In this document: positions 1 to 31,974 of the stretch, piece after piece | How positions within the stretch are numbered: position 1 is the stretch's first letter | Layout: the number at the start of each line of letters is the position of its first letter | NCBI GenBank assembly: GCA_027001995.1 | Contig: JALTLO010000086.1 | Location: 26,224 to 58,197 of the forward strand | Direction of reading: 5' to 3' | DNA length: 31,974 nucleotides | Origin: Planctomycetota bacterium | GTDB taxonomy: Bacteria; Planctomycetota; GCA-002687715; DRQF01 | The notes under the pieces: generated by a model | The model's database searches: none | What the model saw: the letters and a program-made list of their open reading frames with translations, nothing else | Told to the model about the DNA's origin: nothing | Position numbers and translations under genes: made by a program

Positions 1-1031
1 GACAGTTGAACGATCTGGCCGCTTTTCTCTGAATCATAAACTGCTTGAGCGATTTCGATGGCGCGGGCACCATCCCAGCCTTGAGCCAAACGGACCTCTT
101 TGCCGTCGATCATGTTGATGAAATCGTTCAATTCTTTCACGAATGTATCGTAGGACGTGGATTCCCACCCTTTGAATTTTTCTTTCAAAATGATCTCTGG
201 GTAGAACTTTCGTTTCTTTTGGCGGCGGCCAGTTTTGGGATCGCGGCTGACGAAAAGGTTGAACATGGGGGCATAATAGCCCTTCACCATGCCTCTGTCT
301 CCATAGGCCTCAACCGAAAAATGGTAGCCCTTCCATTCGGACCAAGTCGCGTGGTAGCTCACCGGAATATTGTTGACGGTCTTGAAGATCGCCATAGCGT
401 TATCTTCCGATCCTCTCACATTCCAGATGTCGTTGCGGGCTATGCCATAGACTTCTTTGATCTCCCCAGCCACATAGCGTGTTAGGTCAGTCATGTGGAT
501 GCCACAGTCCATCATGGCCCCACCACCGGAGAGTTCGCCTTCGTACATCCAGTCGCAGCGTAGGTTGCTTAGGCCATCGTGACCGGAGAAAATCCTGAGA
601 TGATCTACTGTTCCAATGAGACCATCGTCGATGACTTGTTTGAGATATTCGATAGATGGATAAAAGCGGTGATTAAAACCCACCGCCAGAGTTTTTCCCC
701 ATTTTTCTGCCGCTTCCAGCATGCGTAGGCAGGACTCATGGCTATTGGACATAGGTTTTTCGCAGAGGACATGGCAACCCGCCTCGAATGCGGCCACGGC
801 GGCCACCTCGTGAAATTGGACAGGACTCGAGATGAACACACAATCTGGCTCCACGGCTTCGAGGAGGTCTCTGTGATCGGAAAAGGCCCTGCCTCCGTAC
901 GCTTGGACACAGTTTTGAGCAGCGTCCTGATTTGGGTCGGCCACGGCCACCAACTCAGATCCTGGGTGTTCTGCCACGGTCTTGGCCCTAAGACGTCCGA
1001 TAATTCCAGCTCCGAAAACGGCGAACTTCAT
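1..1031 (-). CDS. Gfo/Idh/MocA family NAD(P)-dependent oxidoreductase (3' end just outside the window; absent from the ORF track)
   Basis: Manual translation from ATG at 1031 gives MKFAVFGAGIIG (Rossmann GxGxxG), HVLCEKP and LAVGFNHRF. The same frame at the window edge reads AQAVYDSEKSGQIVQL, a typical family C-terminus. Confidence 0.9.
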   Translation of the reverse strand, partial: MKFAVFGAGIIGRLRAKTVAEHPGSELVAVADPNQDAAQNCVQAYGGRAFSDHRDLLEAVEPDCVFISSPVQFHEVAAVAAFEAGCHVLCEKPMSNSHESCLRMLEAAEKWGKTLAVGFNHRFYPSIEYLKQVIDDGLIGTVDHLRIFSGHDGLSNLRCDWMYEGELSGGGAMMDCGIHMTDLTRYVAGEIKEVYGIARNDIWNVRGSEDNAMAIFKTVNNIPVSYHATWSEWKGYHFSVEAYGDRGMVKGYYAPMFNLFVSRDPKTGRRQKKRKFYPEIILKEKFKGWESTSYDTFVKELNDFINMIDGKEVRLAQGWDGARAIEIAQAVYDSEKSGQIVQL

Positions 1032-1154
1032 CTGAGAAAGGCTCCAAAAAAAGAAACTGCCCTGGTTCTATCGCCACAGAAGGGACACTAACATGAGAGA
1101 GAGCAATGTGGTTTCATATCTTCGGAATGAGTCCTTTGGTTTGGAGATCAATTC

Positions 1155-2048
1155 ATGAGTCCGGATCTTTCTGTCGTCGTCCCCAGTGTGACGGGTTGGT
1201 CTGATCTAGGCCGATGTGTTCACGCCCTTTGGAGCCAAGAGGGAGATCTTCAGATTGAAGTGATTATTCCAGATCGCCTGGGCGTGGATGTACAAGACCA
1301 GATCAAAACCACCTATCCCAATTGTGTTCTCATTCCTCAAGACCAGAAGACTACAATCCCTCTCATGCGAGGAGCTGGCGTCTTAGCAGCAACGGCACCA
1401 GCCATTGCGATTTTGGAAGATCATGTTCTTGTTCCTAAGACTTGGGCGCAGGACATGCTCAGAGCTCTTGCCTCAAGCGACGGTGTGGTGGCGGGCTCAG
1501 TGGAGAATGGTGCTACGTCCACTTTGATGGACCGTGCCGCTTTCTTGTGTGAATATTCTCACTGCATGCCACCAATTCCTGGGGGTGAGGTCGAATGGCT
1601 GACCGGCAATAACGTTGTCTATGAACGGGAACTCTTGCTGAAGCATGTGGCGATTTTTCAATCTGGGCAATGGGAGAATGTCCTGCATGACGCTATCAAG
1701 GCCTCCGGAAGGAAGCTTATATGTCATCCTGAAATCGTAGTCTCCCATGATCTGCATTATGGGCCCTTTGATTATCTGGGGCAGCGTTACTTATACGCCC
1801 GGTCCTATGCGGGCAGCCGCGTGGCAGAGGAATCTGGGGTGAAGAAATTTGCCTATGGATGTGCGGCATTTCTCTTACCTCCCATTTTATTGATTCGCAT
1901 TTTCAAACGTGTCTTTGACAAGAACCGCGATCGGGGTGTCCTGTTCGCTTCGATTCCTCTTTTGATTAGTTTCGTCTTCGCCTGGAGTTGGGGTGAGGTT
2001 GTGGGATACTGGTTTGGTGCCGGTGATGCACTCGCTCGGGTTCGTTAA
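1155..2048 (+). CDS. Glycosyltransferase family 2 protein
   Basis: N-terminal LSVVVP, AILEDH (DxD-like), GNNVVY and C-terminal hydrophobic helices. GGAG RBS upstream. Confidence 0.8.
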   Translation: MSPDLSVVVPSVTGWSDLGRCVHALWSQEGDLQIEVIIPDRLGVDVQDQIKTTYPNCVLIPQDQKTTIPLMRGAGVLAATAPAIAILEDHVLVPKTWAQDMLRALASSDGVVAGSVENGATSTLMDRAAFLCEYSHCMPPIPGGEVEWLTGNNVVYERELLLKHVAIFQSGQWENVLHDAIKASGRKLICHPEIVVSHDLHYGPFDYLGQRYLYARSYAGSRVAEESGVKKFAYGCAAFLLPPILLIRIFKRVFDKNRDRGVLFASIPLLISFVFAWSWGEVVGYWFGAGDALARVR

Positions 2049-2061
2049 TCTGGAGATCATG

Positions 2062-3333
2062 ATGAAGAAACTTCTCTGCTCAATCTTTGTACTTTCGATT
2101 CTCTTTGCTTGCCAAGACGAGCAACCTTTGCGGCAGAGGATTGGTGATACGGCACCGAGCGAACGGTGGATTTATGACGATTGGCAGAAAGCGAAGGCTG
2201 AGTCGAGTGACACGGGCAAACCACTTTTTGTCGTGTTTCGCTGTGTCCCATGAAAGAACTGTAGTGAATTTGACGGGCAGGTTGTCCGTGAATCATCTGA
2301 TCTGAGTAGCTTGCTGGATCAATTCGTTTGCCTGCGACTTGTTCGCATGCGTGGCGTTGACTTGAGTTTGTTTCAATTCGACTATGACTTGACGTGGGCT
2401 GGGTTCTTCATGGAGCCTGATGGGACAGTCTTGGGACGCTATGGAGCAGGTTCCAGAGATTCCATGCATTACAATTCAATTCCTGGGCTCAAGAATGCCA
2501 TGAAGCGAGCCCTCCAATTTCATCAAAACATCGACGAGTTGAAGCCGGCTCTCGTCGCCAAGAACCAAAAAGACGTCGCTTTCAAGTTTCCGAAAGATCT
2601 TCCTAGCAAGAAAATTCGCGAAATCCTCAAGGGCGACACGGCGCGGAAAAACTGCATCCATTGTCACACGGTTCAGGCCGGCCTCAACGAAGTTATTGCT
2701 TCGAAGCCCGGTTATCACCCAGACCAAATCCGCAGTTTGTTTCCGGCTCCTGAAAGGTTGGGGGTTGTTCTTGACGTTGACCACGGCTTGAAAGTCAAAC
2801 GGGTGATTCCTCAAAGCGCGGCGGCCATGGCCGGGGTCCAAGTGGGGGATGAATTGACGCACGCCATGGGACAGCCATTGCTTTCCAATGCTGATTTCAT
2901 TTGGGCATTGAGGAGCGTGGATGATCCGGGGGTGGCTAACCTTGTTGTGAAGCGGGGGGATACTTCGAAAACTCTGGCTGTGCCCCTCAAGAAAGGTTGG
3001 AAACCCGCAGATATCGCATGGCGTACTTCCGTATTCGACATGCGCCCTCAATTGCGTCTTTGGGTGGAGAAAGCTAACAAGAGCCAACGCCGCAAAGCGC
3101 ACCTGAAAGACGACGAACTTGGCTTGGATGTCCGCGGAGTCTTCGGAGCAGAGGTGAAGAAGGCTGGATTTCGCTCTGGAGACCTTGTCGTCGCTGTGGG
3201 CCCATGGCACCCGAATGTGGGTGCCAATGATTTTGCCCAGCACATTCGCGTTCACTACTATCAAAAGGGTGCCAAAATCCCGATAACTGTGATTCGAGGA
3301 AGCAGACGGTTGACCTTGGTCGCCAAGTTCTAA
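2062..3333 (+). CDS. Trx7/PDZ domain-containing selenoprotein (Sec at TGA 2251-2253), predicted lipoprotein
   Basis: ORFs 1993-2253 and 2311-3333 are in the same frame and separated only by TGA. Read-through gives GKPLFVVFRCVP-U-KNC (thioredoxin UxxC). A SECIS-like hairpin follows. Also LFAC lipobox, CIHCH motif, PDZ-like segments (AAAMAGVQVGD, KKAGFRSGD) and GGAG RBS at 2052-2055. Confidence 0.9.
2265..2295 (+). promoter_or_regulatory. Bacterial SECIS-like stem-loop
   Basis: Core ACGGGCA-GGT-TGTCCGT (2273-2289) extended by ATTT/GAAT and TG/CA pairs. G-containing apical loop about 27 nt after the UGA, resembling the GCAGGU apex of the E. coli fdhF SECIS. Confidence 0.75.
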
Positions 3334-3353
3334 GACACCGGCGGCATTTCGGC

Positions 3354-4166
3354 TCAGAGGTTGAGGATGAGTCCCTGGCGAGCCCCGAGGGCGTCAGGGA
3401 AAATCTTCTGAGCTGCTTGCTCAATTTCCAAGCACACTTGATCGTCATGTGTCGGGTCGTGACTGAAGAGAATGAGTTTCTTGGCCCCTGCTGTCTTGGC
3501 TAAGCGAACTCCCTCGTTGTAAGTGCTATGGCCCCAGCCTTCCCGGCCATTGAAGTACTCGGCTTCTGTATATTGAGCATCATAGACCAATGCGTCGCAC
3601 CCCGTAGCGAACTTGACCAAGAGTTCGTTCATATGGGGTGGGGCGTGTTCTGTGTCTGTAGCAAAGACAAATGATGTGCCTTCTTCGTCGATTCGGAATC
3701 CGGTTGATTCTTGAGGATGGGGCAATGGGATACAGGTGATCGTGGCATCCCCAACTTTGGTTTCCCCATCGTGGGTGAGAAGTGTGAAGGATTTCAGCCC
3801 CAACATGGCATCTAAGCCAACCGGAAAATAGGGCGGCGACATTTGTCCTTTGAGAAACTCTTCTGCGGTTTTGGTGCAATAGATGTGGACTTCATAATCT
3901 GGATGGTAAGCAGGGCCGAAGAAGGGAAATCCTTGGATATGATCCCAATGGGCATGGGTCAAAAACAGGTGGATCGTCTTGCAGTCGGGGTTGGTTGCGA
4001 AAATGTCGCTGCCAAGCTCACGAATTCCTGTGCCCGCATCCAGGATTATCATCTCATCTGTGGATTCGAGGGCAATGCTCAAACAAGGTGTATTCCCGCC
4101 GAACTCTGTGAAATTAGGGCCCGATGTCGGAATGCTCCCCCGTGTTCCCCAAAATCTAACGATCAT
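3354..4166 (-). CDS. MBL-fold metallo-hydrolase
   Basis: FWGTRGS, LDAGTG, THAHWDHIQG (HxHxDH), WGHS and FSHDP motifs. Confidence 0.9.
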   Translation of the reverse strand: MIVRFWGTRGSIPTSGPNFTEFGGNTPCLSIALESTDEMIILDAGTGIRELGSDIFATNPDCKTIHLFLTHAHWDHIQGFPFFGPAYHPDYEVHIYCTKTAEEFLKGQMSPPYFPVGLDAMLGLKSFTLLTHDGETKVGDATITCIPLPHPQESTGFRIDEEGTSFVFATDTEHAPPHMNELLVKFATGCDALVYDAQYTEAEYFNGREGWGHSTYNEGVRLAKTAGAKKLILFSHDPTHDDQVCLEIEQAAQKIFPDALGARQGLILNL

Positions 4167-25463: not shown

Positions 25464-26471
25464 TTACTTGGAGGTCGACTTGGAAGTTGATTTGGACGTT
25501 GGCTTTGAAGTAGGCGCAAGGGATTGCTTACGGAAGAAGCTCGTGCGGTCTACTTGCCCCGAAGGACCACTGATCTTCGTCTGCATGTTGGTGAGATCGA
25601 TTGGCAAGCTTGTTTTCAAGTTCATTCGCATACGAATCTGACTTCTCAAGTCGAAGGCTGGAACGGATTCCTTTGTTGGCAAAGGTTGGCCAGCGGCGAT
25701 GGCTTCTTGTTGCATGGCTTCCAAGAGAATTTGGCTGGCTTTTTCCCGATTGAGTGCTTGGGTGAATTCAATGTAAGCCAATCCTGAATCGACCTTGACT
25801 AGGTTGGTGGTGGCGGTAGCTGGGAAGGGGTGTGTTCCATCCTTGTCGCCGGGATTTGGGATGGCGACCTCTTGGGTTCTGGGTTTCCCCATGGTCAAAG
25901 TATCGAAGCGAGCAAAGTAGATCAGGGGGTCCCGAAGGGAGATGAAGTCGACAGATTTGGGATTGGTGTACAAAGATAGCTGACCAAGAATCCCCTGGGC
26001 CAATTGTGGATTTGTTCCCTGCGCTGTCATCCACTCTTTCATTTTGAGCATGACATTCTGATAGAAGGAAATCACTTCCTGGCGGTTGACTAATTTCATT
26101 GGCTGGCCCAGTTCATTAGCCTCAAAGGTGATCTGAACTGTTGGCGTCAGTTCTCCCAATTTCTTGACCACGGCTTGGACTTCTGGATTGCCTCGAAGTT
26201 GGACTTTTGTTCCACTCGTCGTCCAGGAAATGATGGATTTTTTGTCTGTCTTCTTCAGGATCTTGATGACTACAGTGCTCTTGGCCTGGGTCTGCGGGAC
26301 CAGTTTACCTTTCTCGACAATCATCTTTTCTTTGATTCTGGTGAGAGTGATGCCGTCTCCGACTTTCCACATTGGTTTCATGGAAATTGTCTGTGGGGTT
26401 TGGCCTTGCACGTTTGCCATGACAGTAAGAGAAAGGAAGGCCGCCAGAAGGGTCTTGATAGTGAATGTCAT
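25464..26471 (-). CDS. Hypothetical secreted protein with a TSK-repeat C-terminus
   Basis: 335-aa ORF with a signal peptide, 3 nt downstream of the FG-GAP gene. No recognised domain. Confidence 0.7.
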   Translation of the reverse strand: MTFTIKTLLAAFLSLTVMANVQGQTPQTISMKPMWKVGDGITLTRIKEKMIVEKGKLVPQTQAKSTVVIKILKKTDKKSIISWTTSGTKVQLRGNPEVQAVVKKLGELTPTVQITFEANELGQPMKLVNRQEVISFYQNVMLKMKEWMTAQGTNPQLAQGILGQLSLYTNPKSVDFISLRDPLIYFARFDTLTMGKPRTQEVAIPNPGDKDGTHPFPATATTNLVKVDSGLAYIEFTQALNREKASQILLEAMQQEAIAAGQPLPTKESVPAFDLRSQIRMRMNLKTSLPIDLTNMQTKISGPSGQVDRTSFFRKQSLAPTSKPTSKSTSKSTSK

Positions 26472-26474
26472 TTT

Positions 26475-27812
26475 CTAATGCTCAACTGTGGCGAAGGCGC
26501 CGAAAATAGAAACTTTTCCTCCTCGGTCCGAAGTCATCGGAGACGAGATAAAAATGTCGGCCAAACCGTCTTTGTTTTGGTCATTTGCTGGTGCCAATGC
26601 GAAGCCAAAATGTTCGTTTTCTTCTGAGCCTCGGATGTGGCGAATCAGGCTACCGTCTTTGCCGCTAATGAGACGGACATAACCCACACCATCAACTTGC
26701 TGTTGGGCTGCCCGGGGCGCACCAATCGCTATGTCGTTGAATGAGTCTCCGTTGACATCACCAACCAAACACAAAGAGAATCCAAAACTGTCTCCGGCAG
26801 ATTCGCTCTTTGCTGAAAAGAGAGTCTCTCCACTGGCACCAGAGATCACGTTAATTTGGGAGAATTGGCGACGACTCAAGTTTGAGACAGCAAAGTCATT
26901 AACGCCGTCTTTATTTTGGTCGCCGATGTTGATCACCGAGGTCCCCATTTGGGACTCGTCCGCGGGACCATCGATTTTGCGAATCTGCTCACCATTGGCA
27001 AGAGAATAGAGAAAGACGGCTCCAGCATGATAGCCGTTGCTACTGATTCCCGGAGCGCCAATCACCAATTCCGTTTGCCCGTCTTGGTTCATGTCACCCA
27101 TCGCGGCCACAGAAAGACCAAAACGGTCACCGAAGCGATTTGTGGCTTTTAGAGTTCGGAGGAGTTGGCCGTTTCTTCCAGAATAGATGTAGACGTTGCC
27201 TGGAGCATTGCGAGCTTCGGAACCAGGGGCGCCGATTGCCAAGTCGGGAACGCCATCGCCATTCAAGTCCGGAATATCACAGAACGACTTTCCAAAATGG
27301 TCATCTGGGTGAGGCCCATCAATTCGCAGGATGAGTTTTTGAGTTTTTCCCGAGATGATCTCGACGCATCCCAACACCTGGCCAGAAATCTCGGTTTGAA
27401 AGCTGACTCCGAAATCAGGAGTTCCGTCGGCATCTAAGTCACTCAGAATTCCGCAGCGGGTTGGGCCCGTTTGATTTTCCCATGGGCTGCGGACCCCGGG
27501 GGCTATGACCTTCTGTCCAGCCATTGAATAGACGTTGACTGCGGCCTCGCTTTTTTGGGATTCACTTGACTGCGGTTGCCCAACCAGGAGGTCGCCAACG
27601 CCGTCCCCATCAAAATCGTTGCCTCCTGCGATGGACCAGCCAAATCTCCCTATATCGCTGGTGATTTCTGCCAGAGGGTGGTCATCTTCGGCCCGTGGTA
27701 GTTGAGCCGGTGAACCAAAGTCGCCTAAGCCTAAGATCAAGAAAAGTGCGCCCAAATAGATGGCGGTCGCTGTTGCTGGCAGGTAAACACTATTCGTTTC
27801 GGCGGCATTCAT
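26475..27812 (-). CDS. FG-GAP / integrin-alpha repeat beta-propeller protein
   Basis: Multiple FG...DxDGDGxxDxxIGAP repeats and an N-terminal TM/signal segment. Start uncertain (27812-27848). Confidence 0.88.
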   Translation of the reverse strand: MNAAETNSVYLPATATAIYLGALFLILGLGDFGSPAQLPRAEDDHPLAEITSDIGRFGWSIAGGNDFDGDGVGDLLVGQPQSSESQKSEAAVNVYSMAGQKVIAPGVRSPWENQTGPTRCGILSDLDADGTPDFGVSFQTEISGQVLGCVEIISGKTQKLILRIDGPHPDDHFGKSFCDIPDLNGDGVPDLAIGAPGSEARNAPGNVYIYSGRNGQLLRTLKATNRFGDRFGLSVAAMGDMNQDGQTELVIGAPGISSNGYHAGAVFLYSLANGEQIRKIDGPADESQMGTSVINIGDQNKDGVNDFAVSNLSRRQFSQINVISGASGETLFSAKSESAGDSFGFSLCLVGDVNGDSFNDIAIGAPRAAQQQVDGVGYVRLISGKDGSLIRHIRGSEENEHFGFALAPANDQNKDGLADIFISSPMTSDRGGKVSIFGAFATVEH

Positions 27813-27972
27813 GGCCAATTTCTTTTCTCCCTTTTGGGGTGCGATCAAGTCTCGGTCCGTAGTCTAACGATTTCTACGGCTATGTTCATGGGGCAACAAT
27901 CAGCCATTATTGGGCGTTTTGGGCCTGTTCTCGTTAAGATCCCCGGCATCAAGAGAGAAACTAAGGGAATCT

Positions 27973-29243: not shown

Positions 29244-29422
29244 CCTAAGCTTCCGAGCCTTGGCGAGGTCGCGTGGCATCGGAGCATCCCAATGATGGTC
29301 ATCCGAGTTTTCGTGTCGTCATGCCGCCATCATGTCGCCCTTTTCATGGAAGGCATTGGCGGAGATAACAACGTGTAGGGAGGTGGCCAAAATGGCAGCC
29401 CGTGGACCAAGAGAAACTAAAG

Positions 29423-29496
29423 TACGCCCAGCAGGACTTGAACCTGCGACCTACGGATTAGAAATCCGTTGCTCTATCCGGCTGAGCTATGGGCGC
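29423..29496 (-). tRNA. tRNA-Arg(TCT)
   Basis: GCGCCCA/TGGGCGT acceptor, ACGGA-TTTCTAA-TCCGT anticodon arm and GGTTCAAGTCC T arm. CCA not encoded. Confidence 0.95.
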
Positions 29497-29528
29497 TTGT
29501 GCCCTGTGGCTCTCACGAGGGCTTTAAG

Positions 29529-29601
29529 TACTCCTGTCGCGACTCGAACGCGAAATTCCGGCTTCGGAGGCCAGCGGTTTATCCAATTAGCCTACAGGAG
29601 C
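29529..29601 (-). tRNA. tRNA-Arg(CCG)
   Basis: GCTCCTG/CAGGAGT acceptor, CTGGC-CTCCGAA-GCCGG anticodon arm and TCGCG-TTCGAGT-CGCGA T arm. Confidence 0.92.
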
Positions 29602-29645
29602 AAATAGGCCCCGCACAGAGGCGGGGCCTTTCATCTGCGTTGCGC

Positions 29646-29673
29646 ATTGTATTGCGCTCAAACTGAAGCTCAA
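29646..29673 (-). promoter_or_regulatory. Candidate sigma70 promoter for the tRNA-Arg pair
   Basis: TTGAGC-N16-TACAAT on the minus strand, about 45 nt upstream of tRNA-Arg(CCG). Confidence 0.45.
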
Positions 29674-29707
29674 GACTTACGGTGAAGCTTGGCAACAATT
29701 TGCAATC

Positions 29708-29923
29708 CTATAGGTCGTGGGCACGAACTGTAGAACGCTTGTTGCTGTCTGCACGGTTGCAGGCAGAATCGAGCAATTCATGAACTTTTTCATTGAGAGC
29801 TTCGAGAAGCTCGCCCGAAGTCATGCAGCCGTTGCCCTTGATGACACCCTTGACCTTGGAACCGACGATAAGTGTGTCCAGGCTCTTTTTCTTAGCAGCC
29901 TTCTTTTTGGCCTTTTTTGCCAT
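29708..29923 (-). CDS. Bacterial histone-fold protein with a Lys-rich N-terminal tail
   Basis: LIVGSKVK...TSGELLEALNEKVHELL..A..RA..NKRSTVRAHDL, which contains the RxTxxxxD histone motif and resembles Bdellovibrio Bd0055. TAAGGA RBS 9 nt upstream. Confidence 0.88.
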   Translation of the reverse strand: MAKKAKKKAAKKKSLDTLIVGSKVKGVIKGNGCMTSGELLEALNEKVHELLDSACNRADSNKRSTVRAHDL

Positions 29924-30261
29924 GTGTGTTGATCCTTATTCTTGAATCCAAAACAAGTTGAAACTCGTCCTGAGCAGGGTGAAACCCGTTTCTCACCCGA
30001 ATTGCTCGAAATCCTACGTCACCGGGACGACATGGCAAGGCGTAAAACCGCGATTCAGTGCCAAAATCGGCGTTTATGGCCGGATTTGTCGTGTTTATTT
30101 CTCAAAAACGCCGCGAATCGTCGAAATGTGGCGTTTTTCGGTGATGGCTTGGTCGCGTTAACGCAATTGGCCAGGGTGGTGAAAGTGCGTCGTAACAGTC
30201 GCAAGAGAGGAGAGAATAGGGAGATAAAGCGAATGGATTTTTGAGAAGGAAAAGCTTGGCC

Positions 30262-30290
30262 TTGATGGATCTCTTGTGCTTTCATATCTT
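30262..30290 (+). promoter_or_regulatory. Candidate sigma70 promoter for tRNA-His/tRNA-Lys
   Basis: TTGATG-N17-TATCTT, about 50 nt upstream of tRNA-His. Confidence 0.5.
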
Positions 30291-30342
30291 GGCGCGCTCA
30301 GGGGTTTCGGCCCTGGAGTTGTGCTTGTGAAAGCGAGCATAT

Positions 30343-30417
30343 GGAGGGCATAGCTCAGTTGGTTAGAGCGCCGGTTTGTGGTTCCGGAGGTCGGGGGTTC
30401 GATTCCCCTTGCCCTCC
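30343..30417 (+). tRNA. tRNA-His(GTG)
   Basis: G-1 plus GAGGGCA/TGCCCTC acceptor, C discriminator, anticodon loop TTGTGGT and GGTTCGATTCC T arm. Confidence 0.95.
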
Positions 30418-30454
30418 CTCCATTTTTGATCGTGGGAGAAACATTTCTCCTTTT

Positions 30455-30527
30455 GCTCGCGTAGCTCAGTAGGCAGAGCAGCTGATTCTTAATCAGCGGG
30501 TCCCAGGTTCGATCCCTGGCGCGAGCA
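30455..30527 (+). tRNA. tRNA-Lys(CTT)
   Basis: GCTCGCG/CGCGAGC acceptor, GCTGA-TTCTTAA-TCAGC anticodon arm and GGTTCGATCCC T arm. Confidence 0.95.
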
Positions 30528-30531
30528 CTCC

Positions 30532-30557: not shown

Positions 30558-30720
30558 CGTGCCAAGGTTATCGTGAAAATTGGGTGTGGGATCGAGCCGG
30601 GGACTTCGGGGAGCTTGGGCTCGAAGTTGTCGTGTGCGTGCGCTTGGGTTGGGCTTGGACCGTATGAGGGAAAAGTGGCGCGTTTTCTTCTTGGTGCGCG
30701 TGGATCCGTAGTCTCGCTGC

Positions 30721-30801
30721 GGGAGCAGTGGCCTCTGGCCGCTTCCTCTTGTTTTCGTTTTTTGGAGGAAGACCAAGAAGCGGCGGGACGCCACTGCTCC
30801 C
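30721..30801. repeat. REP doublet (REPIN-like) downstream of the RAYT gene
   Basis: GGGAGCAGTGGCCTCTGGCCGCTTC and inverted GAAGCGGCGGGACGCCACTGCTCCC, separated by a ~31-bp spacer. Confidence 0.85.
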
Positions 30802-30814
30802 GGGAAGAGAGCGG

Positions 30815-31369
30815 TTACTTTTTCCAAGCACTTGAGAATCTCCAATCAGCAGCTGTTGCGCAAAGCCCAGCCTTGACTGGATTCTCCTCGATGTAATTGA
30901 GCGCGCTGGAGAAATGCTCTTCATTTCGTATGTATCGATCAAAGTAGTCGGCGTGCCAAACTGCTCCTGATTGCCCTAGCGTCTTGTTGATCTTATGTGC
31001 GGAATAACTCTTCCAACTGTGAATGGCTTTCCAAAGTGTGATCTCGGGTCTGAGAGTCAGCAGGACATGAACATGGTTTGGCATTACAACCCAAGCATGA
31101 ACCCAATAGCGAATCTCATGGAAGTGGAGGATCGAATTCGCAACAACATGAGCAAGATTCGTTTTTCTTAGGATACAGCGCCCGGCGCCCTGATCGAGAA
31201 GTTTCTCGACGCCCTCCATGTCTTTCGACAATATGGAAAGCGTTTTCTTGGGATGGCTGTCGATCAACCCGAAGGTGACCATTTGGGAGACGCCATAAGC
31301 ATCACAATGAGGCAAGCGTTTTTCGTCTCGTCTGAGTTCTTGATTCGATCTCATAAAGATTGGATCCAC
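30815..31369 (-). mobile_element. REP-associated tyrosine transposase (RAYT, HUH/Y1)
   Basis: LPH, VTF, WVVMPNHVHVLL (HUH), WKSYSA, WHADYFDRYIR, YIEENPVKAGL (catalytic Tyr) and WRFSS. AGGAG RBS before GTG. Confidence 0.92.
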
Positions 31370-31562
31370 AGAATTCTCCTTTCATGTATTACTTGACGAG
31401 AACGTGGATGATCGTGGACCTAAGAATTTGAGATTTTCCAATTGCCTACACAGGGTGAAGTCTCGTGAATCCTTGGGATTGGGGAGAGTGGCTGTTGATC
31501 GTCGCGAGGAACGTGCACTGGGGGGACTTCTTACCTTTTCATGGATTTTGGGCGAGTGCGAA

Positions 31563-31974
31563 GAAGCGGCGGGACGCCACTGCTCCCGGGAAGAGTAGGT
31601 TTTTTGCTCCGCTGGGAGCAGTGGCCTCTGGCCGCTTCCTCTTGTTTTCGTTTTTTGGAGGAAGACCAAGAAGCGGCGGGACGCCACTGCTCCTGGGTGA
31701 GTAGGTTTCTTGCTCCGCGGGGAGCATTGGCCTCTGGCCGCTTCTTCTTGTTTTCGTTTTTTGGAGGAAGACCAAGAAGCGGCGGGACGCCACTGCTCCC
31801 GGGAAGAATTGGTTTTTTGCTCCGCTGGGAGCATTGGGCTTTGGCCGCTTCTTCTTGTTTTCGTTTCTTGGAGAAAGACGAAGAAGCGGCGGGACGCCAC
31901 TGCTCCCGGGAAGAATTGGTTTTTTGCTCCGCGGGGAGCATTGGCCTCTGGCCGCTTCTTCTTGTTTTCGTTTT
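31563..31974. repeat. Tandem array of REP doublets (~107-bp period, BIME-like), running off the window
   Basis: GGGAGCA-starting units at 31614, 31720, 31827 and 31934, plus a lone inverted REP at 31563-31587. Spacers are near-identical. Confidence 0.9.

Follow-up and report, generated by a model that had tools for sequence, protein, structure and literature searches.

A probable CxxU selenoprotein of the Trx7/PDZ family in a Planctomycetota genome, with an invariant CxxCH segment as a candidate haem c site

In a draft genome of a Planctomycetota bacterium (assembly GCA_027001995.1), a plus-strand frame running from a thioredoxin-like segment into a PDZ-containing remainder is broken by one in-frame TGA, which raises the question whether this codon ruins a gene, separates two genes, or is read as selenocysteine (Sec). 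The stretch of DNA analyzed, hereafter the window, comprises 31,974 nucleotides of contig JALTLO010000086.1. Between positions 2062 and 3333 the sole internal stop is the TGA at 2251-2253 (codon 64), in the context F-R-C-V-P-[TGA]-K-N-C, and the frame ends in TAA. The lister of open reading frames cuts the gene into two (1993-2253 and 2311-3333); the 19 codons from the TGA to the TTG at 2311 are open. Reading of the frame thus bears out the original prediction that a lone TGA splits the thioredoxin-like N-terminus from the PDZ-containing rest and that the codons in between are open. With the TGA read as Sec the protein has 423 residues, or 424 if translation starts from an alternative in-frame ATG at 2059; a GGAG is present at 2052-2055. 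The features of the gene are the following:

2062..3333, plus strand: probable Trx7/PDZ selenoprotein gene
2062..2112, plus strand: export signal, probably of lipoprotein type, ending at Cys17
2158..2535, plus strand: thioredoxin-fold domain, about residues 33-158
2242..2253, plus strand: redox motif C61-V-P-U64 (CxxU), with the TGA at 2251-2253
2260-2262, plus strand: Cys67, a third, less conserved cysteine in the family alignment
2264..2294, plus strand: bacterial SECIS-like hairpin (upper stem 2273-2279/2283-2289; 3-nt loop 2280-2282)
2653..2667, plus strand: C-I-H-C-H (residues 198-202), candidate haem c attachment site
2755..3009, plus strand: first PDZ domain, about residues 232-316
3043..3330, plus strand: second PDZ domain, about residues 328-423

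Upstream on the same strand lies a family-2 glycosyltransferase frame (1155-2048), with its stop 13 nt before the gene, and downstream a convergent gene of the metallo-beta-lactamase fold (3354-4166, minus strand). No sigma-70-like promoter was found in 900-3600, and none of the sequencing runs listed as carrying the locus is an RNA run. Elsewhere in the window, a 335-residue frame is accompanied by genes for an FG-GAP repeat protein and a PLD-like nuclease (25464-26471 and 26475-27848, both minus strand); at E 0.001 it matches nothing in Pfam or NCBIfam, and its one weak hit is signal-peptidase-like, at E 0.0022. Four tRNA genes (Arg-TCT, Arg-CCG, His-GTG, and Lys-CTT) occupy 29422-30528, with a small, unannotated lysine-rich frame among them at about 29714-29923 (minus strand). 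The terminal part, 30653-31974, is a RAYT/REP-like locus: a REP-associated tyrosine transposase (30815-31369, minus strand; NF047646, 91 bits against a cut-off of 80) is flanked by palindromic repeats, and tandem units of 106-107 nt reach the end of both window and contig.

The 423-residue protein matches the NCBIfam family NF041199, "Trx7/PDZ domain-containing (seleno)protein", with 361 bits against a cut-off of 300 and over positions 2-389 of the 390 in the profile, which supports the prediction of a single selenoprotein of this family. Pfam places Thioredoxin_7 (PF13899) at residues 36-109 (37 bits against 27) and a PDZ domain at residues 234-309, with both PF13180 and PF17820 above cut-off. 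The AlphaFold model of the whole protein, built from a 118-row alignment, is confident (pLDDT 92.9, pTM 0.89), and its structural matches extend the picture: they include 3f9u_B for the thioredoxin fold (Z 9.7, rmsd 2.4, 116 aligned), they agree with Pfam on the first PDZ domain, and they reveal a second one, which resembles 4yo1_A (Z 11.8, rmsd 2.8, 91 aligned) and MamP, 4jj0_A (Z 11.4, rmsd 3.2, 89 aligned). The basic and hydrophobic N-terminus, judged by eye, ends at a cysteine that has a counterpart at the equivalent site in G001, G002, and G005, the three nearest genomes; of 112 full-length homologues, 107 have a hydrophobic stretch ahead of the thioredoxin domain. Cys17 is called lipoprotein-type on the basis of the lipobox rule; to judge from these sequence features, the product is probably exported, and probably as a lipoprotein.

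The gene is therefore not new in kind, as it belongs to a curated and already catalogued family. The tables in the available passages of two reviews, PMC13188914 and PMC9312934, list it as CxxU with one Sec and as "PDZ domain-containing protein, pfam13899, CxxU", respectively, and both passages cite Zhang & Gladyshev 2008 (PMC2398784). The corresponding passage of that paper uses the name "putative secreted serine protease MucD" for CxxU proteins, with 2 Sec sequences and 12 Cys homologues, which we infer to be the same family as NF041199. The family shares with the gene the CxxU motif with one Sec, the thioredoxin and PDZ build, and a UGA followed by a bacterial SECIS-like hairpin; at the level of the gene there is no difference.

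The position of the UGA within the redox motif differs from what had been predicted. The original prediction placed it at the first position of a CxxC motif (U-K-N-C, a UxxC form). The string U-K-N-C is indeed present. The thioredoxin pair that is conserved, however, is C61/U64, which makes UGA 64 the second position of the motif C61-V-P-U64 and not the first. Homologues were taken as the best 120 of the 1,188 found, minus a fragment of the gene itself, which left 119 aligned sequences. As the prediction had anticipated, column 64 is Cys in every one of the 112 that have a residue there, and Pro63 is equally invariant (112/112); the other seven begin downstream of the column, six of them being the closest relatives (56-63% identity). 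A broader set was obtained by reading genomes through TGA, and comprises 129 distinct members from 127 loci (part of 141 matches plus four added loci, with one duplicate dropped). Positions 61 and 64 form UxxU in 66 of these, CxxU in 39, CxxC in 23, another pair in one, and UxxC in none. Cys or TGA occupies position 61 in all 129 members and position 64 in 128 of them; at position 67, by contrast, 116 members have Cys, and 12 Sec forms have Gly, Ala, Phe, Ser, or Asn. In the AlphaFold model, C61-V-P-U64 sits between the strand 55-60 and the helix 65-75, the place of the W-C-G-P-C (CxxC) motif in thioredoxin. The UxxC reading (U64-K-N-C67) was rejected on these grounds: no member has the form, Cys67 is not invariant, and the model puts C61 and U64 at the active site.

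The hairpin downstream of the UGA (-12.4 kcal/mol; 3-nt loop with leading G, 26 nt past the UGA) fits the bacterial SECIS consensus model given in section 5 of PMC13188914. Its stability is not significant against shuffled sequences (z -0.48 to -1.66); the argument for it comes from the family. Scored over five stem pairs, 85% of cells are paired among the 105 TGA forms and 15% among the 23 Cys forms, as against 25-47% when the partners are slid by 1-3, a comparison that favors the unslid register because the pairs were defined from this very gene. Pair 26-36 shows compensatory changes (GC 57, CG 18, AT 13, and TA 5), and a loop-side signature is found in 97 of the 105 TGA forms and in none of the 24 others. 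By comparison, a loose bSECIS model discriminates weakly, as it passed 100/105 Sec forms but also 12/24 non-Sec forms. Genome-wide, the loop signature follows 282 of 206,150 TGA triplets (0.14%). Among the 2,376 triplets with open flanks it follows six, including those of the present gene and its paralogue. In one sequencing run (X1), a contig of another organism, with R-C-V-P-TGA upstream, aligned to 2269-2303 only, i.e., to the hairpin stretch. Of the four runs aligned to the locus, all of which gave contigs, X4 has a contig that spans the TGA, and X2 a piece with just 18 letters to the left of it.

The decoding machinery is encoded in the source genome (204 contigs, 92% complete), where all four predicted genes were found above cut-off:

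selA: contig C148, 21750-23114
selD, itself with one in-frame TGA: contig C148, 23158-24084
tRNA-Sec gene (selC): contig C148, 24316-24409
selB: contig C17

The first three are thus neighbors, while selB lies elsewhere. A single draw from the phylum, 301 genomes in all, gave 106 with a match to the Trx7/PDZ family (E 1e-40) and 227 with a match to selA (E 1e-60). The latter is present in 78 of the 79 genomes with a TGA-bearing copy and in 15 of the 27 with TGA-free matches only (three of them partial); since related genomes are not independent, this co-occurrence is a pattern and not a test statistic. The single exception, G152 (92% complete; UxxU copy on contig C41), has no selA match at that threshold, probably owing to an assembly gap. 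SelB with Sec-tRNA(Sec) would bind the hairpin through its G-first loop, and the ribosome would consequently read UGA 64 as Sec; judged from the sequence, this is almost certainly how the codon is decoded.

Three other accounts of the TGA were weighed. That it arose by nonsense mutation or by an error of assembly, the locus being a pseudogene or a misread Cys gene, might be entertained for an assembly of 204 contigs in which support is at the level of contigs and the best-matching run may be the source sample itself. Such an error is scarcely conceivable, as the same TGA recurs in G001, G002, and G005 (63%, 61%, and 43% identity), TGA at position 61 and/or 64 is found in 105 of the 129 members and always on these two Cys columns, the covarying hairpin accompanies the TGA and is absent from Cys forms, and selA occurs in all but one of the genomes with a TGA copy. 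It is also highly improbable that the locus encodes two proteins, a 63-residue peptide and a PDZ protein of 328-340 residues, as gene callers have it (P0002-P0008). The database entries for this gene, and for six close relatives, do consist of just the downstream piece; however, the split would cut the thioredoxin domain at its active site and leave the downstream piece devoid of an export signal, whereas the joined protein gives a confident model and 112 homologues (among the best 120 of 1,188 found) are single Cys-containing frames.

The third account is a recoding of UGA partly or wholly as Cys by a tRNA of the tRNA-ReC (SelC*) type. Such tRNAs are discussed for UxxU hydrogenases in the passages of PMC13582414 that concern them, where they are described as using SECIS and as enriched in UxxU genomes, and the source genome does have a UxxU paralogue. 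The account is nevertheless very unlikely. ARAGORN at its default threshold reports one tRNA-SeC and one ordinary tRNA-Cys of 72 nt; the five UCA or GCA calls at a relaxed threshold fall below the default score; the D-loop GG is missing from four of them and the T-loop consensus from three. The other nine matches to RF01852 (150 of 652 candidates scored) have the anticodons of ordinary Ser, Leu, Tyr, Gly, and His tRNAs. No tRNA-ReC candidate thus emerged from ARAGORN and the RF01852 scan, neither of which is a model specific to tRNA-ReC, in this 92% complete assembly. Weighed against these accounts, an intact CxxU member of the Trx7/PDZ family with UGA 64 recoded as Sec is the preferred reading, with a probability of about 0.93.

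The same genome contains a second member (contig C197, 20366-21547, minus strand; loci L021/L062), which is 32% identical to the gene and has two in-frame TGA codons in U-V-P-U-R-D-C. The paralogue shares the loop signature and carries an extra small hairpin, a difference that recurs across the family: the 18 nt after codon 64 reach -3 kcal/mol in 57 of 66 UxxU forms, 11 of 39 CxxU forms, and one of 23 CxxC forms, at similar GC content. With 0.0 for this stretch, against -3.2 in the paralogue, the gene represents the plain one-Sec state. In UxxU forms the distances from the two UGAs to the loop are 26 and 35 nt, and as both fall within the range of 16-37 nt, one SECIS may serve both UGAs. In the passages available, PMC13582414 proposes a single downstream SECIS for the two UGAs of UxxU hydrogenases. 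Those Group 4 [NiFeSe] hydrogenases mix CxxC, CxxU, and UxxU on one tree, as does the Trx7/PDZ family, but they have an unrelated fold and include four UxxC forms, compared with none in the 129 members here.

On a FastTree tree of the family (midpoint root; motif and hairpin-coding residues masked), which is effectively unrooted and leaves Sec gain and loss indistinguishable, position 64 changes three times and position 61 changes 24 times, with the starred branches forcing 14 changes for the UxxU label. The gene falls in a well-supported clade with its relatives in G001, G002, and G005, all of them CxxU. Paired copies of the family, a few kb apart, were observed at L111 (G096), L150 (G221), and L162 (G273), the first pair being UxxU and CxxU. 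The CxxU gene and its UxxU paralogue, within one genome, constitute a natural pair for testing the decoding of UGAs 9 nt apart.

Further Sec candidates were noted in the source genome. A thioredoxin-like frame on contig C27 (3703-4640, plus strand; L025) reads V-P-G-U-K-G-C and has a second in-frame TGA further down in G-M-S-U-Y-W; labeled by eye, it has the appearance of a two-Sec fusion of a VPGUxx-type thioredoxin and an MsrA-like domain. In at least eight more thioredoxin- or TlpA-like frames, picked by eye from 19 pattern hits, TGA replaces the first Cys of W/T-U-x-x-C, in most cases with a small hairpin after it:

C43:32692, C58:37783, C68:55187, C68:54773, C76:35028, and C105:27174, minus strand: UxxC-type frames
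C138:6292 and C20:25073, plus strand: UxxC-type frames

On the basis of these frames, the genome would have a rich selenoproteome of the true UxxC type.

The names given to relatives point to a protease, a function rejected here. Matches to HtrA/DegP/DegQ (MucD) reach at best 35 bits against a cut-off of 416 and cover residues 232-418 only; no trypsin-like domain was found, and outside the PDZ region the protein consists of the signal, the thioredoxin fold, and a helical linker. The HtrA proteins are likewise exported, and their tandem PDZ domains are similar in sequence and structure, but their N-terminal part is a trypsin domain where the Trx7/PDZ protein has a thioredoxin fold. As the matches are limited to the PDZ part, names such as "serine protease Do", which one of the downstream-only database entries bears, look transferred via PDZ.

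Between the thioredoxin and PDZ domains lies the C-I-H-C-H segment. Its residues C198, C201, and H202 are invariant both in the 119 homologues (from the best 120 of 1,188 found) and in the 129 genome members; for comparison, a CxxCH of any kind occurs in 75 of the 2,483 open frames of at least 300 residues in the genome, which also has two cytochrome c assembly genes (PF01578). When a profile of the segment was searched against PDB sequences, 21 of 22 weak matches were c-type cytochromes (best E 1.6e-4, summed over four stretches), and these were driven by the motif alone. The segment has no Pfam match above cut-off; the magnetochrome family PF18509 matched weakly on three of 109 segments (best E 0.072). 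Folded alone, it reached a pLDDT of 85 and a pTM of 0.59 and gave no structural match (best Z 2.5; none at E 0.001), a result that speaks neither for a new fold nor for a distinction from cytochromes. An invariant second axial ligand was not found among His and Met residues: H154 is present in 110/129 members, and H284 in 81/129, with Arg in the gene itself. MamP, a PDZ protein with CxxCH (magnetochrome) haem domains, provides a precedent for the pairing of PDZ and CxxCH haem sites in an envelope protein; its structural match covers the second PDZ domain only, and the Trx7/PDZ protein differs in having one CxxCH plus the thioredoxin domain with Sec.

It is on balance likely that CxxCH carries covalently bound haem c. 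A rival view accepts Sec and regards C-x-H-C-H as a zinc or other metal site or an internal disulfide, the protein being a PDZ-gated disulfide isomerase or a redox sensor devoid of haem. Several zinc-ribbon families score weakly on single members of the segment, a distal His or Met is not invariant, and the inner His200 is nearly so (127/129). Haem attachment does not need the inner His of CxHCH. The strict invariance of C198, C201, and H202 (each 129/129) in the spacing of CxxCH, the apparent export of the protein in a genome with PF01578 assembly genes, the predominance of cytochromes among the PDB matches, and the pairing seen in MamP all argue the other way, and the rival view is accordingly the weaker one, though it deserves serious consideration.

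In the literature passages available on the Trx7/PDZ family no function is given, and no mention of a UxxU form or of CxxCH was found in them; the NCBIfam comment on NF041199 and the supplements of the papers may hold one. Flanks of 1.5-3 kb yielded 3,265 stop-to-stop frames, and all-against-all BLAST among these found no partner common to the whole family: the largest clusters overlap the Trx7/PDZ gene itself, as judged by the coordinates of their representatives, and the largest others occur in 12-13 loci, some of them close kin. Within these flanks, genomic context gives the function no support.

A role may be proposed from the architecture. The thioredoxin domain would very probably cycle between the selenol/thiol pair and a C61-U64 selenenylsulfide bond, given its fold and the known chemistry of thioredoxins. 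The two PDZ domains might capture client envelope proteins, and while clients are held there, electrons could pass between their cysteines and the haem. Taken together, lipoprotein export, C61-U64 cycling, haem c, and PDZ capture would make the protein an envelope thiol-disulfide oxidoreductase that contains its own electron relay to haem, a role that is plausible yet tentative, with chances slightly short of even. A more specific version is a single-chain selenol-to-haem relay, an exported enzyme of the order Trx(Sec)-haem c-PDZ-PDZ with Sec content as a dial; this version is rather doubtful. It would have client cysteines in the envelope oxidized or reduced independently of a DsbB or DsbD partner, and its short haem-binding module would stand outside every catalogued cytochrome family. 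Sec64 would be nearly fixed (the three changes above) while at position 61 Cys and Sec replace each other at least 14-24 times, and one SECIS would serve both UGAs, the extra hairpin going with the two-Sec state.

For annotation, the consequence is a correction: gene callers lose the signal peptide and the active site, and what remains goes by the name of "PDZ protein" or "serine protease Do". Because they drop the N-terminal part of Sec genes, protein databases show almost only Cys forms, whereas genome read-through reveals that Sec forms are the majority in the phylum sample (105/129). If CxxCH does hold haem, selenol chemistry, haem, and client-binding domains would be united in one envelope protein.
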